DNA of 5,710 bases, from IMG/VR virus record IMGVR_UViG_2651869755_000011, positions 1-5,710 of that record; one strand, 5' to 3'. This DNA is from a virus. Lineage: Duplodnaviria; Heunggongvirae; Uroviricota; Caudoviricetes. A model generated the notes under the pieces. That model saw only the letters and a program-made list of their open reading frames with translations. It ran no database searches and was not told where the DNA came from. The translations under genes were made by a program, and so were the position numbers. The number at the start of each line of letters is the position of its first letter. The stretch's first letter is position 1. This document shows, piece by piece, positions 833-5,710 of the stretch.

Positions 833-908
833 GGCCCTTTAGCTCAGTGGTGAGAGCGAGCGACTCATAATCGCCAGGTCGCTGGTTCAAATCCAGCAAG
901 GGCCACCA
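833..908 (+). tRNA. ileZ: tRNA with CAU anticodon, tRNA-Ile2 (lysidine type, AUA decoder) by similarity to E. coli ileX; tRNA-Met cannot be excluded
   Basis: Manual cloverleaf: acceptor GGCCCTT/AAGGGCC, D-stem GCTC/GAGC, anticodon loop CTCATAA (anticodon 866-868), T-arm GCTGG-TTCAAAT-CCAGC, encoded CCA at 906-908. The symbol follows the ileZ-argN-argO cluster described in Stx-type prophages. Confidence 0.85.
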
Positions 909-915
909 TCACATA

Positions 916-992
916 CCGCCATTAGCTCATCAGGAAAGAGCGCCAGCCTTCGAAGCTGGTTGCGCGGAGTTCGGGTCCCCGAAGGCGGTCCA
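916..992 (+). tRNA. argN: tRNA-Arg(UCG)-like, atypical and possibly degenerate
   Basis: Manual fold: perfect 5-bp anticodon stem CCAGC/GCTGG with loop CTTCGAA (anticodon 950-952), canonical U8/A9, D-stem GCTC/GAGC, encoded CCA at 990-992. It also has an A-A mismatch in the acceptor stem, an A-C mismatch in the T-stem and a T-loop of TTCGGGT (G where A58 is normally conserved). Confidence 0.5.
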
Positions 993-1005
993 TTATCTGT
1001 ATCCT

Positions 1006-1082
1006 GCGTTGTTAGCTCAGCCGGACAGAGCAATTGCCTTCTAAGCAATCGGTCACTGGTTCGAATCCAGTACAACGCGCCA
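1006..1082 (+). tRNA. argO: tRNA-Arg(UCU), AGA decoder
   Basis: Manual cloverleaf with perfect acceptor stem GCGTTGT/ACAACGC, D-stem GCTC/GAGC, anticodon stem ATTGC/GCAAT with loop CTTCTAA (anticodon 1040-1042), T-arm ACTGG-TTCGAAT-CCAGT, discriminator G and CCA at 1080-1082. Confidence 0.85.
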
Positions 1083-1127: not shown

Positions 1128-1341
1128 CTCACAATTCAGGCGGTTGACTGTTGTCTGGTTTGCGGGGAGTTTGTTAAAAGAAACTGGCATGGTGAATCCC
1201 CCTGTGCGGAGGGGCAATCAGCGAGTAGGTATATGGGATAATCGCGGATTCAGGTGCTGGTACTGAATTCACCGGGAGGCACCCGGCACCATGCAATGGC
1301 ACATAGCGCCACTCTCCAGCCCCTCTCCGGAGGGGCTTTTC
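1128..1341 (+). repeat. Copy A of a duplicated noncoding module (candidate small-RNA or regulatory unit) ending in an intrinsic terminator
   Basis: Shares ordered blocks with copy B: CTCACAATTCAG, TTGAC(T/A)GTTG, TTTGTTAAAA(G/A)AAA, GCATGGTGAATCCCCCTG(T/A)GCGGAGGGGC, TGAA(T/C)TCACCGGGAGGCACCCGGCACCATG and AGCCCCTCTCCGGAGGGGCTTT. Internal hairpins include CCCCT/AGGGG and CCGGG/CCCGG. Confidence 0.75.
1319..1340 (+). terminator. Intrinsic terminator closing module copy A
   Basis: 7-bp GC-rich stem GCCCCTC (1319-1325) / GAGGGGC (1330-1336), tetraloop TCCG, then TTTT (1337-1340). There is no U-run on the minus strand, so it acts on the plus strand only. Confidence 0.65.
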
Positions 1342-1396
1342 TGTGCCGGATACATCACAGTTTCTGGAACCTTAGGTACTACAGTATCAGTCAGGG

Positions 1397-1595: not shown

Positions 1596-1829
1596 CTCAC
1601 AATTCAGTAAGTTGACAGTTGCCTGTCAGACTGGGCATTTGTTAAAAAAATTTCGCATGGTGAATCCCCCTGAGCGGAGGGGCGACTGGTGACGGTATAA
1701 TCTCTGATTATCAAAACGAGAATGACGCGGGTTTAGTGGCACCGGGCTGAACTCACCGGGAGGCACCCGGCACCATGTGCATGATGATACAGATACGCGG
1801 CTTTAGCCCCTCTCCGGAGGGGCTTTCTT
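1596..1829 (+). repeat. Copy B of the duplicated noncoding module, ending in an intrinsic terminator
   Basis: Same ordered conserved blocks as copy A, with variable sequence between them. It contains a perfect TTGACA (1612-1617) inside the palindrome TGACAG-N4-CTGTCA (1613-1628) and a perfect TATAAT (1696-1701). Confidence 0.75.
1806..1829 (+). terminator. Intrinsic terminator closing module copy B
   Basis: Stem GCCCCTC (1806-1812) / GAGGGGC (1817-1823), loop TCCG, then TTTCTT. Confidence 0.6.
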
Positions 1830-1835
1830 ATGGAC

Positions 1836-1864
1836 AAAAAAAGCCCGCGCTGGGAGACGCGGGC
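1836..1864 (-). terminator. Minus-strand intrinsic terminator, convergent with the copy-B terminator
   Basis: 7-bp stem GCCCGCG (1843-1849) / CGCGGGC (1858-1864) with an 8-nt loop. On the minus strand the hairpin is followed by seven U (plus-strand A-run 1836-1842); there is no U-run on the plus side. Confidence 0.5.
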
Positions 1865-1932
1865 GGCAAGGAATAAACAATAAAACGTGAAGTAATATTT
1901 CAGCTGGCGAATAATACCCCATAGTAATCACT

Positions 1933-1955
1933 CTGCGCAACTGCGCGGTCTTTTT
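1933..1955 (+). terminator. Intrinsic terminator-like hairpin upstream of the esterase gene
   Basis: Stem CTGCGC (1933-1938) / GCGCGG (1943-1948) with one G-U pair, loop AACT, followed by TCTTTTT (1949-1955). Confidence 0.45.
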
Positions 1956-2057
1956 CGAATTGCGGGCTGTAGTCTCCCTTCTGCCATTGTCCTGTAACTT
2001 CCGGACTTCAGCCTGCTCCTTATCTGACTCACAACATTATCCCGCCCGGGAGGATTC

Positions 2058-3911
2058 ATGGCATTTAAACACTATGACGTGGTCAGGGCGGCATCGCCGT
2101 CAGACCTTGCGAAACGACTGACACAAAAACTGAAGGAGGGCTGGCAGCCGTTTGGTAGTCCGGTGGCCATAACCCCTTATACCCTGATGCAGGCGATTGC
2201 AGCAGAAGGTGATGTGGTCGTCAGTGGTGCAACTGAGCCGGAGTGGTACTACGTCATCGTACTGGCCGGGCAATCCAATGCCATGGCTTACGGTGAAGGG
2301 CTTCCGCTTCCGGATTCATACGATGCGCCCCATCCGCGCATTAAGCAACTGGCCCGTCGTAACACAGTGACTCCCGGTGGTGAAGTATGCGTATTTAACG
2401 ACATCATTCCTGCTGACCATTGTCTGCATGATGTTCAGGATATGAGTACGATTAACCATCCCCGGGCTGACCTGAGCAAAGGGCAGTACGGCTGTGTCGG
2501 ACAGGGCTTACATATTGCCAAAAAACTGCTTCCGTATATCCCTAATAATGCGGGGATCCTGCTGGTACCATGCTGTCGTGGTGGTTCGGCATTCACCCAG
2601 GGCACGGAGGGGACATTCAGCGAGTCCACGGGAGCCAGTCAGGATTCGGCTCGCTGGGGAGTGGGTAAGCCGTTATATCAGGATCTGCTTTTCCGCACGA
2701 AGGCAGCATTGCAGAAAAACCCGAAAAACGTTTTGCTGGCGATATGCTGGATGCAGGGGGAATTCGATATGACGAATGCCAGTTACGCCCAGCAGCCAGC
2801 AGCATTTCTTGCAATGGTACAGCAGTTCCGTGCTGACCTTGCCGGGCTGGCAGCGCAGTGTCACGGTGGAAGTCCGGCATCAGTCCCCTGGATTTGTGGC
2901 GACACGACATACGCGTGGAAACAAGAACACGGTACGCAATATGAAGTGGTATATGGTGCATATAAAGGTAAAGAATCCCAGCAGATTTATTTTGTTCCCT
3001 TTATGACCGATGGTAGCGGAGTTAATACACCGACAAACAACCCGTCAGAAGATCCTGATATTGTCGGGTCTGGTTATTACGGTTCGGCATCCCGAACGAA
3101 CAAAAACTGGGTATCATCAAATCGCCCGACGCATTTCAGCTCATGGGCGCGTCGTGGCATTATTCCCGATCGTATGGCAACTGCTATTCTGAACGTAGCC
3201 GGTCGCACCTTAGCCTTCATTAGTGGTAAGGCACCGGAAATCAAACTCTCGCCCGGCGGCGACACGCCATCGGGGCCGTCTGAAGATGCATCCATACGCA
3301 CAATCTCCCTGTTGCCGACAGCCGGAGACGCTGCTGCGCAGGGCTGGAGCATTAAGAATGGCGGAATTCAGTTGTCAGATGGTGTATTTAAGATCACCAA
3401 GCAGAGCAATAAAGCCTGGTCCCTGACGCGCCCGGTGGATGACGCAGTCTCCCTGCTGACACGGGGTGGCAGACTGAGCTGTAAGTTTCGACTGTCAGGC
3501 GCACTGACCAACAATCAGTTCGGTCTGGGAATTTATCTGTATACCGATGTAGCGTTACCTGACGTCGTGGCGATGACCGGGACTGGTAACCCGTTCCTGA
3601 TGTCGTTCTTCACCCAGACCACAGACGGCAAACTGAATCTGATGCATCACAAGAAAGCAGGAAACACAAAGTTGGGCGAGTTCGGGAATTACAGTAACGA
3701 CTGGCAGACGCTGGAGCTGGTGTTCACCGCCGGCAGTGCCACGGTTACTCCGAAACTGAATGGAGTGGCTGGCCCGGCATTCCAGGTCATAAAAGACAGT
3801 CTGACACTGGGGCTGAATGCGCTGACGCTGACGGATATTACCAAAAATGCAGCGTATGGCGTTGAGATAGAAAGTCTGGTGCTGGAGATAAATGCACCGG
3901 CATCATCATAA
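2058..3911 (+). CDS. nanS-p: Prophage-encoded sialate (N-acetylneuraminate) O-acetylesterase, NanS-p-like: N-terminal DUF1737-like region, SGNH/SASA esterase core, long C-terminal domain of unclear function
   Basis: 617-aa ORF with SD GGGAGG 7 nt upstream of the ATG. The N-terminus MAFKHYDVVRAASPSDLAKRLTQKLKEGWQPFGSPV and the esterase block I motif VIVLAGQSNAMAYGEG (putative catalytic Ser73) match the NanS-p family of EHEC prophages as I know it. The position after the tRNA cluster and before the holin is typical. Confidence 0.88.
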   Translation: MAFKHYDVVRAASPSDLAKRLTQKLKEGWQPFGSPVAITPYTLMQAIAAEGDVVVSGATEPEWYYVIVLAGQSNAMAYGEGLPLPDSYDAPHPRIKQLARRNTVTPGGEVCVFNDIIPADHCLHDVQDMSTINHPRADLSKGQYGCVGQGLHIAKKLLPYIPNNAGILLVPCCRGGSAFTQGTEGTFSESTGASQDSARWGVGKPLYQDLLFRTKAALQKNPKNVLLAICWMQGEFDMTNASYAQQPAAFLAMVQQFRADLAGLAAQCHGGSPASVPWICGDTTYAWKQEHGTQYEVVYGAYKGKESQQIYFVPFMTDGSGVNTPTNNPSEDPDIVGSGYYGSASRTNKNWVSSNRPTHFSSWARRGIIPDRMATAILNVAGRTLAFISGKAPEIKLSPGGDTPSGPSEDASIRTISLLPTAGDAAAQGWSIKNGGIQLSDGVFKITKQSNKAWSLTRPVDDAVSLLTRGGRLSCKFRLSGALTNNQFGLGIYLYTDVALPDVVAMTGTGNPFLMSFFTQTTDGKLNLMHHKKAGNTKLGEFGNYSNDWQTLELVFTAGSATVTPKLNGVAGPAFQVIKDSLTLGLNALTLTDITKNAAYGVEIESLVLEINAPASS

Positions 3912-3996
3912 AAAGTGAGCCAGCCAAATGGAAGGTATCGTTAAACTCACCGGTAGTGTCAGTGGGTCGTCTGAGATGCCTGCATGAGTTATCAGA

Positions 3997-4026
3997 GCCA
4001 TCAGTACTTAACTGGTGGCTTTTTTT
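3997..4026 (+). terminator. Intrinsic terminator between the esterase gene and the holin
   Basis: 8-bp stem GCCATCAG (3997-4004) / CTGGTGGC (4012-4019) with one G-U pair, 7-nt loop, followed by TTTTTTT (4020-4026). Confidence 0.5.
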
Positions 4027-4061
4027 ATTGTTGTCAGCTTCCGGATAACGGGAGACGGGGT

Positions 4062-4281: not shown

Positions 4282-4626
4282 ATGACTCAAAACTATAAAC
4301 TGATTGTGAAAGGGATCCGCAATTTTGAGAATAAAGTTACGGTAACTTTAGCGTTACGGGACAAAAAACGCTTTGACGGTGAAATTTTTGACCTGGACAT
4401 CTCGCTGGACCGTGTTGAAGGTGCCGCGCTGGAGTTTTATGAGGCAGCAGCCAGAAGGAGCATCAGACAGGTCTTCCTGGATGTTGCTGCCGGGTTATGT
4501 GAAGGGGATGAGCAGTCGCCGGAAAAGCGCCCCGTAATTTTAGAGGCGCAGGATGTGTTGATAACCTACAGAGGAAAACTACCGGGAATAATTACGGGTT
4601 CTCTGAAGAGTCCGCCGAAATGGTAA
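4282..4626 (+). CDS. Hypothetical 114-aa protein inserted between holin and endolysin (function unknown; possibly comparable to the uncharacterised genes found between S and R in some E. coli prophages)
   Basis: ATG at 4282 is 4 nt after the holin stop, with SD GGGGAGAG at 4267-4274, so it is translationally coupled to the holin. The sequence looks like ordinary coding sequence. I do not recognise the protein. Confidence 0.6.
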   Translation: MTQNYKLIVKGIRNFENKVTVTLALRDKKRFDGEIFDLDISLDRVEGAALEFYEAAARRSIRQVFLDVAAGLCEGDEQSPEKRPVILEAQDVLITYRGKLPGIITGSLKSPPKW

Positions 4627-4864
4627 TTTTACCAGCATATTTTTCATCCAGTAATACAGCAAGCCGCCTGAAAGAGTCTTGTTGTTCCTGAGACCATTTG
4701 GGATTGCATGATTCAAACTGGATTGATGCCAGCGTTGATTGCATCTGTTCCCTTGGAATTGAGAATGCCAGATATGAGAAGGCGACGGTAAGGGTATTCA
4801 CGTCTTCCCGAAGCCTGGAAATGCTGTCGAGCAACTCCTGTAGAGAAATGGTGTTATTGTCCAT
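4592..4864 (-). CDS. Possible 90-aa hypothetical protein on the opposite strand, convergent with and overlapping the 3' end of the 114-aa ORF by 35 nt
   Basis: Minus-strand ATG (4862-4864) is preceded by SD GAGGA at 7-nt spacing. A promoter-like pair lies upstream on the minus strand (TTGCCT, 19-nt spacer, TACAAT). It fills most of an otherwise unexplained 343-bp gap between ORF114 and the endolysin. No recognisable homology. Confidence 0.4.
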   Translation of the reverse strand: MDNNTISLQELLDSISRLREDVNTLTVAFSYLAFSIPREQMQSTLASIQFESCNPKWSQEQQDSFRRLAVLLDEKYAGKITISADSSENP

Positions 4865-4969: not shown

Positions 4970-5623
4970 ATGAACGCAAAAATCAGATACGGCCTGTCGG
5001 CTGCCGTTCTGGCGCTGATTGCCGCTGGTGCGCCTGACATTCTCGACCAGTTTCTGGATGAAAAGGAAGGTAACCACACCACGGCATACCGTGATGGCGC
5101 GGGTATCTGGACCATCTGCCGCGGTGCCATCCTGGTGGATGGCAAACCTGTCGTTCCGGGCATGAAGTTGTCGAAGGAAAAATGCGACCGGGTTAACGCC
5201 ATTGAGCGTGATAAGGCGCTGGCATGGGTGGAGAAAAACATCAAAGTGCCATTGACCGAACCCCAGAAAGCGGGGATCGCGTCATTCTGTCCGTACAACA
5301 TTGGTCCCGGTAAGTGTTTCCCGTCGACGTTTTACAGACGAATTAATGCTGGCGATCGCAGGGGAGCATGTGAGGCGATTCGCTGGTGGATTAAGGACGG
5401 TGGCAGAGACTGCCGTATTCGTTCAAATAACTGCTATGGACAGGTCTCACGGCGTGACCAGGTGAACCGCCCCGGGTTTCCTGGAGAGTATTTTATCTGT
5501 GAACTCAGGCTGCCAGATCATCGTTTCCGATGGAAGCATAATAAGCTTTTTCTGCTTCTGCCGGAGGAGTATGGCCCAGCCTTTCCAGCAATCGTCGATT
5601 GTTATACCAGTCCACCCACGTGA
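4970..5623 (+). CDS. R: SAR-type phage endolysin (T4-lysozyme-like muramidase, phage 21 R type), 3' end disrupted by IS insertion: codons 1-164 (4970-5461) are native, the last 53 codons are IS-derived
   Basis: N-terminal signal-anchor-release segment MNAKIRYGLSAAVLALIAAGAP, catalytic E33/D42/T48 spacing (E-8x-D-5x-T) and overall similarity to phage 21 R. The frame runs straight from ...YGQVSRRDQ into the IS terminus TGAACCGCCCC at 5463. Family members are about 165-185 aa, so roughly 10-15 native C-terminal residues appear to be replaced. Confidence 0.8.
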   Translation: MNAKIRYGLSAAVLALIAAGAPDILDQFLDEKEGNHTTAYRDGAGIWTICRGAILVDGKPVVPGMKLSKEKCDRVNAIERDKALAWVEKNIKVPLTEPQKAGIASFCPYNIGPGKCFPSTFYRRINAGDRRGACEAIRWWIKDGGRDCRIRSNNCYGQVSRRDQVNRPGFPGEYFICELRLPDHRFRWKHNKLFLLLPEEYGPAFPAIVDCYTSPPT

Positions 5624-5710
5624 GTGTGGCCAGTTCCACTTCTGCACGGTTTTTCCAGCTCTTACGGTGTATTACCTCCGCTTTGTAAAGACCATTGATG
5701 CTCTCCGCCA
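5463..5710 (-). mobile_element. IS629/IS1203-like IS3-family element, right end only (continues beyond the window end), inserted into the endolysin gene
   Basis: Terminal inverted repeat TGAACCGCCCCGGGTTTCCTGGAGAGT at 5463-5489. The minus strand encodes the C-terminus of an IS3-family OrfB transposase ending LERLGHTPPAEAEKAYYASIGNDDLAA, which I recognise as IS629-like from memory. Confidence 0.85.
5505..5710 (-). CDS. IS3-family transposase OrfB, C-terminal fragment (5' part outside the window)
   Basis: Minus-strand translation AESINGLYKAEVIHRKSWKNRAEVELATLTWVDWYNNRRLLERLGHTPPAEAEKAYYASIGNDDLAA with stop codon at 5505-5507 (TGA on the minus strand). Confidence 0.85.
   Translation of the reverse strand, partial: AESINGLYKAEVIHRKSWKNRAEVELATLTWVDWYNNRRLLERLGHTPPAEAEKAYYASIGNDDLAA

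Follow-up and report, generated by a model that had tools for sequence, protein, structure and literature searches.

A minus-strand small RNA gene upstream of nanS-p in an E. coli prophage corresponds in sequence to EcOnc08/EcOnc21/EcOnc42

The minus strand upstream of the nanS-p gene of a lambdoid Escherichia coli prophage carries a small RNA (sRNA) gene that, on sequence comparison, is the already known EcOnc08/EcOnc21/EcOnc42, found experimentally in pathogenic E. coli. Positions 1836–1871 very probably constitute the 3′ functional module of this prophage-encoded, Hfq-dependent sRNA, with seed, terminator and U tract, in a model where the RNA pairs with its targets in trans. A real sRNA gene was thus correctly found from sequence alone. 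It is unmarked in RefSeq genome annotation and has no Rfam family. About 18% of complete E. coli genomes carry the RNA, as do many Stx-converting phages. Its contacts in enteropathogenic E. coli (EPEC) span virulence and envelope/metabolism mRNAs (tir, cfa, dppA). The yield is modest, as the gene is already known and no new class of mechanism is opened. It consists of a precise anatomy (terminator, seed and two candidate promoters) and of the finding that the published probes are blind to a short form of the RNA.

Genomic setting

The window, i.e. the whole 5710-nt stretch of DNA that was analysed, comes from an E. coli prophage of lambdoid, Stx-phage-like type without stx genes and represents its late-regulatory region. 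Over its whole length it shows 99.8% identity to prophages in many non-Stx E. coli. Features in and around the sRNA gene are listed in Table 1, together with the number of variable sites in homologous loci where these were counted.

Table 1. Features of the window and site variability of the small RNA cassette
Feature	Position	Strand	Basis	Variable sites (124 loci)
DNA methyltransferase fragment	left part of window			
tRNA trio, ileZ-argN-argO type	833–1082			
STnc100 copy 1 (pR′-tR′ RNA)	1158–1348	+	Rfam, 136 bits	
STnc100 copy B, convergent partner of the minus-strand sRNA	1626–1835	+	Rfam RF02076, 165 bits	
tR′ hairpin ending STnc100 copy B	1805–1824	+	terminator scan	
U7 tract, RNA 3′ end, likely Hfq proximal-face site	1842..1836	-	sequence; EPEC 3′ end	
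Intrinsic terminator hairpin, GCCCGCGU / loop CUCCCA / GCGCGGGC	1864..1843	-	top terminator-like site; fold	stem 2/16; loop 2/6
Seed CCUUGCC, directly 5′ of terminator stem	1871..1865	-	target-motif complementarity; invariance	0/7
A/U-rich body of 3′ module (UUUUAUUGUUUAUU...)	1872..1904	-	EcOnc08 homology	
Candidate internal -10, TATTAT (plus-strand ATAATA)	1916..1911	-	invariance; AsxR-like geometry	0/6
Spacer between candidate -10 and -35			length always 18	5/18
Candidate -35, TTGCGC, shared with AsxR-type cassette, inside plus-strand hairpin 1933–1948	1940..1935	-	invariant	0/6
5′ extension of long form, antisense to nanS-p 5′ UTR	1905..2017	-	EPEC estimate; EcOnc21 peak; probe	
Candidate long-form promoter, ATGCCA, 17 nt, GATAAT	2064..2036	-	consensus scan	
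nanS-p/SASA esterase gene, 617 aa	2058–3911			
Holin, YdfR and lysozyme genes	downstream of nanS-p			

The module formed by a pR′-like promoter, STnc100 and tR′ is tandemly duplicated (1128–1348 and 1596–1835). The two copies share an 88-nt core that is 80% identical, and their start-to-start spacing is 468 nt. A third, degenerate STnc100-like stretch lies between them at 1387–1560; it scores 30 bits, which is below threshold, and its end is formed by a terminator of its own at 1531–1554. The Sakai prophages Sp4, Sp15 and Sp5 have a single STnc100 module at the corresponding position, and the copy in EPEC prophage PP6 is truncated.

Identity of the minus-strand RNA

Tree et al. (2014; Mol Cell, PMC4104026) described convergent sRNA pairs at the moron site downstream of pR′ in the lambdoid prophages of enterohaemorrhagic E. 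coli (EHEC) O157 Sakai. Three of the Hfq-CRAC peaks in their Table S2 are of concern here: EcOnc08 on the minus strand of Sp4 (1179938–1180010; found in 5/5 datasets), EcOnc21 (1180016–1180101), and EcOnc42 in Sp15. The table links the three to one another as homologues and gives ~271 nt as their Northern size; the CRAC signal (AUC) is 3.2 M for EcOnc08 vs 2.7 M for EcOnc21 (PMC4104026). EcOnc42 has also been described as an sRNA 3′ of the toxin genes stx1AB (Sy et al., 2020), and in a 2021 review EcOnc42/21/08 appear among the RNAs confirmed by Northern blot and CRAC, their function being given as unknown.

The CRAC peaks were mapped onto the current Sakai record, where the probe and peak of the opposite-strand EcOnc05 confirm the coordinates. 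The minus strand of the window from 1910 to 1838 is identical to the Sp4 EcOnc08 peak at 71/73 positions (97%). The EcOnc08 sequence, TCGCCAGCUGAAAUAUUACUUCACGUUUUGUUGUUUAUUCCUUGCCGCCCGCGUCUCCCUGCGCGGGCUUUUU, comprises the terminator and ~50 nt upstream of it, and the second Hfq peak region, that of EcOnc21/EcOnc42, falls in the 5′ extension (1905..2017). From tR′ to the nanS-p ATG, the window aligns colinearly with Sp4, Sp15 and EPEC PP6.

The EPEC homologue comes from an independent source. Pearl Mizrahi et al. (2021; Sci Adv, PMC8550237) reported an sRNA candidate, E2348C_1409.E2348C_1408.IGR, in prophage PP6 of strain E2348/69. It occupies the minus strand at 1444797–1444978 (182 nt) and carries a 7-U tract, and the authors annotate its homology to EcOnc08/21/42 in Table S6B (PMC8550237). 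Its 3′ end (1444797) corresponds to window position 1836 and its estimated 5′ end to position 2017. The mapped EPEC 3′ end thus coincides with the end of the 8-bp stem and U7 tract in the window.

The window shares with EcOnc08/21/42 the strand, the position between an STnc100-type tR′ and nanS-p, the terminator and the seed. The gene is on the minus strand, convergent with STnc100 (1626–1835, plus strand) and upstream of nanS-p (2058–3911). With the EPEC homologue, the flanks and the GGCAAGG-complementary seed are identical. There are also differences. The present copy is in a non-Stx prophage with two tandem STnc100 modules, and its 3′ module has two substitutions relative to EcOnc08, one in the loop (1851) and one in the body (1881). 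The promoter spacer is CCCCATAG here and TCCGACAG in EcOnc08/21/42, and the hexamer near the start of the long form is TCAGAT here vs TAAAAT in those homologues. In EPEC the convergent STnc100 is truncated by ISEc13, whereas in the window it is intact and duplicated.

The sequence-only reading had proposed a minus-strand small RNA that ends at the 1843–1864 hairpin. Such an RNA has been observed in homologues by Hfq-CRAC (EcOnc08), by Northern blot (the EcOnc08/21/42 probe) and by RIL-seq in EPEC. All these data are from homologues, and expression and Hfq binding of the present copy are putative. The antisense sRNA model of that reading therefore holds for the RNA itself and for its terminator; its size and start do not fare as well, as discussed below.

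The terminator

The minus-strand stem has eight base pairs (seven G-C and one U-G) and a 6-nt loop, and is followed by T7 (plus-strand A7, 1836–1842). It therefore has what is expected of an intrinsic terminator, i.e. a G+C-rich stem, a short loop and at least five U residues directly 3′. The hairpin folds with -16.9 kcal/mol (z = -3.5), and 0/200 shuffled sequences were equally stable. A scan of the window gave 17 terminator-like sites, vs 5.2 +/- 2.6 in shuffles, and the hairpin at 1843–1864 ranked at the top of these. The inverted repeat GCCCGCG/CGCGGGC had been read as having its U7 run on the minus strand only, and there is indeed no T run after it on the plus strand. It had also been placed back-to-back with the copy-B terminator. 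The two hairpins are convergent and separated by 18 nt, so this description is accurate.

In the copy of Sakai Sp15 (an Stx1-phage copy; locus L002, 5310–5335), one base of the terminator arm is changed from G to T (CGCTGGC), leaving the stem with an A-G mismatch. Pairing in a different register (CCGCCAG / CUG-GCGG) may make up for it. The variant is common to four IMG/VR loci.

Conservation of the cassette

A 135-nt segment of the gene is present in 987/5426 complete E. coli genomes (~18%) and in 58 phage records, mostly of Stx2a and Stx1 converting phages. Under this segment there is no annotation in RefSeq, save that a few phage records list a CDS for a ‘hypothetical protein’. Two core sequence patterns had no exact match in a collection of species-representative genomes (one genome per species), and hence there are no distant relatives to compare.

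Two sets of IMG/VR loci were compared. The first was anchored on the nanS-p leader and gave 95 loci with the present cassette, representing 40 distinct sequences; the second consists of 124 loci carrying the present cassette. In the first set, 13% of sites vary in the 3′ 69 nt (1836–1904) vs 30% in the 5′ extension. In the second set, among the elements counted in Table 1, sites vary in the spacer, stem and loop, and both the hairpin and the -10, whose conservation in homologous prophages had been suggested as a check, are kept in the 124 loci. The run length of the U tract is 6–8 in homologues. Stems are nearly invariant across the 124 loci, and consequently there is no covariation to test.

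Seed and candidate targets

The EPEC RIL-seq data yield a target motif, GGCAAGG/GGCAGGG, that is complementary to CUUGC(C/G) beside the terminator (PMC8550237). In the window, CCUUGCC at 1871..1865 is complementary to GGCAAGG, and it is invariant in the 124 loci. The predicted fold of the 68-nt form leaves the seed unpaired. The long form folds no better than shuffles (z = -1.24), and its minimum-energy fold pairs part of the seed with the 5′ end. A duplex of 9 bp and -15.5 kcal/mol is predicted between the seed and the cfa site, but it should be pointed out that the targets had been selected by the motif, which makes the check partly circular.

The EPEC homologue has ten RIL-seq partners. It is RNA2 in nine of the interactions, is found in both orientations in one, and is never RNA1 only (PMC8550237); it behaves as a canonical Hfq sRNA in RIL-seq. 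Chimeras number 767 with the cfa 5′ UTR and 197 with the dppA 5′ UTR, and other partners are tir, emrA, pcm, espC and a LEE gene (PMC8550237).

These data fit a model in which the gene acts in the lysogen. By analogy with lambdoid phage biology, rightward transcription would halt at tR′, leaving the leftward gene free to be transcribed, so that the sRNA would be expressed in lysogens. The RNA would end at the U7 terminator and bind Hfq, as its homologues do, the putative Hfq module being formed by the A/U-rich stretch and the U7 tail. Single-stranded CCUUGCC beside the terminator would then pair in trans with mRNAs that contain GGCAAGG; the partners and the motif were established in EPEC, and the candidates are the cfa and dppA 5′ UTRs, tir and emrA. 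The main species would start at ~2017–2029, and a species of ~68 nt, produced by the TATTAT promoter or by processing, may coexist with it. An additional cis-antisense effect on the nanS-p leader is possible.

Size and 5′ end

Published sizes disagree: 182 nt from EPEC RNA-seq coverage (PMC8550237) vs ~271 nt from the EHEC Northern blot (PMC4104026). No convincing minus-strand promoter was found for a transcript of exactly 271 nt, which would start at ~2107. In the same EcOnc table the Northern sizes of EcOnc05 (~222 nt) and EcOnc27 (~235/247 nt) exceed the ~170 and ~185 nt predicted from sequence by ~1.3-fold, and for this reason 271 nt is taken here as a probable overestimate.

The sole minus-strand consensus promoter match near the locus, in the window as well as in Sp4 and Sp5, is of the 2064..2036 type. 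It overlaps the start codon and ribosome-binding site of nanS-p (GGAGG, ATG) and predicts a start at ~2029 and an RNA of ~193 nt. Most homologues have an alternative -10, TAAAAT, and the start predicted from it fits the EPEC 5′ end. In the window this hexamer is degraded to TCAGAT (2027..2022), and the long form may therefore be weaker here. Most likely the major species starts at ~2017–2029 from a promoter overlapping the nanS-p ribosome-binding site and is ~180–195 nt in length.

The sequence-only reading had instead assigned the RNA a length of ~70 nt and a start near 1904, from a -10-like TATTAT at 1911–1916 with a weak -35. Both promoter elements are present, the -35 being TTGCGC (1940..1935), 18 nt upstream. 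The size and the start are probably wrong or at best incomplete. The RNAs published for homologues measure 182 nt (window 1836–2017) and ~271 nt. Moreover, the published probe of the EHEC Northern blot, AATAATATCCGACAGTAATCACTCTGCGCAATAGC, has plus-strand sense and falls at window positions 1910–1944, which are upstream of 1904; the RNA that it detects must cross the proposed internal promoter. The position of the probe also means that a 68-nt RNA is undetectable with the published Northern blot.

Alternative interpretations

Perhaps the short RNA is nevertheless a species in its own right. It would be an autonomous sRNA of ~68 nt, transcribed from TTGCGC-18-TATTAT with a start at ~1904 and consisting of body, seed, stem and U tract (1837–1904). 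The locus would then be a third AsxR/AgvB-type allele, and the longer RNAs would be read-through products of an upstream promoter and not the main functional species. We consider this a tenable but somewhat doubtful interpretation. The internal promoter is weak, with a consensus score of 8/12 that fails the scan threshold, and is unremarkable by itself. But the promoter of AsxR, inferred from a start that was mapped by TAP-dependent RLM-RACE (Tree et al., 2014; PMC4104026) in the same slot of Sp5, likewise fails the consensus scan, and scan failure is thus no evidence against the TATTAT promoter. The mapped AsxR start implies TTGCGC, 18 nt, TAAAAT, i.e. the same -35 and the same spacing as here, and the chance of a -10 matching 5/6 at the AsxR geometry is 0.027. 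Both hexamers are invariant in the 124 loci, whereas spacer sites vary and the spacer length is fixed, although the invariance of the -35 may come from the conserved plus-strand hairpin that contains it. EcOnc08 is a separate 73-nt Hfq peak that starts 1 nt past the TATTAT hexamer; on the other hand, similar signals for EcOnc08 and EcOnc21 are expected of two Hfq sites on one RNA. Two IMG/VR loci (L132 and L133) retain the cassette with its -35 hairpin, while the nanS-p 5′ region and the upstream promoter are replaced, and on its left side the cassette recombines with different tR′ types. The blindness of the probe to a 68-nt RNA also speaks for a short form, and the invariance of TATTAT together with the AsxR-like geometry makes such a form plausible. 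Nevertheless, EPEC RNA-seq coverage is 182 nt and not ~70 nt, and detection of RNA by the probe upstream of 1904 shows that transcription passes the proposed promoter. The fullest version of the short-form proposal is that the locus is a true third allele of a short anti-sRNA cassette, a ~68-nt Hfq sRNA with an AsxR-type promoter that was missed because the only published probe lies upstream, and that the segment from terminator to -35 hairpin is the unit exchanged among prophages. This is rather unlikely. The AgvB allele relieves dppA repression by sponging GcvB, and the present allele would contact the dppA and cfa leaders directly. If the proposal were true, prophages would thus be swapping, at a single site, cassettes that act on one host regulon.

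Two other interpretations do not centre on pairing in trans. One gives the RNA mainly a cis role, by antisense regulation of the late operon or by transcriptional interference with it, the RNA being fully complementary to the nanS-p 5′ UTR. In lysogens it could damp leaky expression of late genes or of nanS-p, and after induction Q-antiterminated read-through could silence it. The long form (1836–2017/2029) is antisense to the whole leader from tR′ to nanS-p, the promoter at 2064..2036 overlaps GGAGG and the ATG, and the arrangement upstream of nanS-p is conserved in both cassette types that occupy the slot. Yet in EPEC the Hfq chimeras are with trans targets and involve the 3′ end of the RNA, the cis-complementary 5′ extension is the less conserved part, and L132 and L133 keep the cassette without nanS-p. 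A predominantly cis role is accordingly judged unlikely, although it is compatible with action in trans. The other interpretation sees the hairpin as a mere insulator that stops stray leftward transcription into the tR′/tRNA/Q region and releases an RNA without function. Back-to-back convergent terminators are a common insulating arrangement and the terminator is strong, but Hfq binding in 5/5 CRAC datasets and a RIL-seq profile typical of a canonical sRNA, whose targets share a motif, argue against it, as do the invariant seed and highly conserved body, next to which non-functional positions vary. An insulator alone is very improbable. The trans-pairing sRNA with its 3′ module at 1836–1871 is the interpretation preferred here.

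Relation to AsxR, AgvB and other small RNAs

The minus-strand sRNA is a positional analogue of AsxR/AgvB, with the same place in the convergent pair 3′ of pR′ at the moron site, but not a member of that family in sequence. In the set of IMG/VR loci anchored on the nanS-p leader, the slot contains either the present cassette type (95 loci) or the AsxR/AgvB type (26 loci) and no other. In Sp5 (L001), Rfam places STnc100 at 4423–4628 on the plus strand and AsxR at 4630–4682 on the minus strand, the same abutting geometry as in the window. The slot sequence of Sp4 and Sp15 is that of the window and unlike that of Sp5.

AsxR (RF02703), AgvB (RF02702) and EcOnc03 thus resemble the present RNA in occupying a minus-strand slot that abuts an STnc100-type tR′, as in Sp5. 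The AsxR-type cassette has in common with it the -35 hairpin and the 18 nt to the -10. AsxR/AgvB and the present RNA, the latter via its homologues, bind Hfq and have intrinsic terminators. The RNA bodies, in contrast, show no sequence similarity. The seed of the present RNA is beside the terminator, whereas that of AsxR/AgvB is at a variable 5′ end and mimics an sRNA target. AsxR/AgvB measure 51–60 nt, and the sizes published for homologues of the present RNA are 182 and ~271 nt, with a 68-nt form as a possible further species. Furthermore, AsxR/AgvB are anti-sRNAs, and there is no evidence that the present RNA sponges another sRNA. Membership of the AsxR/AgvB family was rejected, as neither the conserved ~42-nt 3′ region (AGUAUCUCAUGC..UUGCCCGAACCCAYUCGGGC) nor an Rfam match was found at E <= 1, where the Sp5 control gave 88.1 bits for AsxR. 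An Rfam search with permissive thresholds gave no match to AsxR, AgvB or Esr41, and no family covers the element.

STnc100/StxS-type pR′-tR′ RNAs belong to the same convergent pair; they too are found in the prophage late region, are associated with Hfq and are expressed in lysogens. They differ in being on the opposite strand and unrelated in sequence. In addition, STnc100 is a by-product of termination of the late-promoter transcript, whereas the present RNA would have its own promoter.

Other candidates were considered and set aside. OmrA-B (RF00079) matched 1836–1924 on the minus strand with 25.2 bits vs a gathering threshold of 40 (E = 0.15), and the match was treated as due to chance. 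This full-length match probably reflects the terminator and the A/U-rich body, and there was no seed in common. Esr41 is EcOnc14 of SpLE1 and has no Rfam match here. The Pas sRNAs of Zhu, Shabalina and Storz (2026) do not fit either: PasD is an STnc100-like RNA of the plus strand, PasA and PasC are located between esterase and holin genes, and PasB is among structural genes.

A plus-strand terminator-like hairpin at 1933–1957, CTGCGCAACTGCGCGG followed by TCTTTTTCG, is conserved in both EcOnc08-type and AsxR-type cassettes. Only its loop varies, and it contains the shared leftward -35, TTGCGC. It also marks where the sRNA cassette recombines on its right-hand side. L132 and L133 retain the cassette through the -35 hairpin, and their nanS-p leader is replaced right after GCGCGGCCT. 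A further IMG/VR locus, L066, keeps the promoter side and the body and has lost the seed and terminator. These three natural recombinants may serve as tests of which promoter drives the sRNA.

Other elements in the window

In EPEC, the slot between nanS-p and the holin gene is occupied by minus-strand sRNAs, PasA or PasC (homologues EcOnc51/52). The PasA/PasC probe sequences were not found by eye in the nanS-p/holin interval of the window. A strong plus-strand terminator-like hairpin of 12 pairs followed by T8 is present in this interval, at 3994–4030, and the slot of the present prophage appears to have an element that differs from PasA/PasC.

Within the lysis cassette, a 90-aa minus-strand open reading frame at 4592–4864 is convergent with the YdfR-family gene and antisense to its 3′ end. 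It is annotated as hypothetical protein WP_000369850.1 in RefSeq genomes.

The similarity of the lysozyme reading frame (from 4970) to intact homologues ends at ~5465, and the minus strand at 5505–5639 encodes the C-terminus of an IS3-family transposase. The transposase sequence beyond ~5465 indicates that an insertion sequence has interrupted the lysis gene. In related genomes an IS3-family element also adjoins the left end of the window (1 to ~243).
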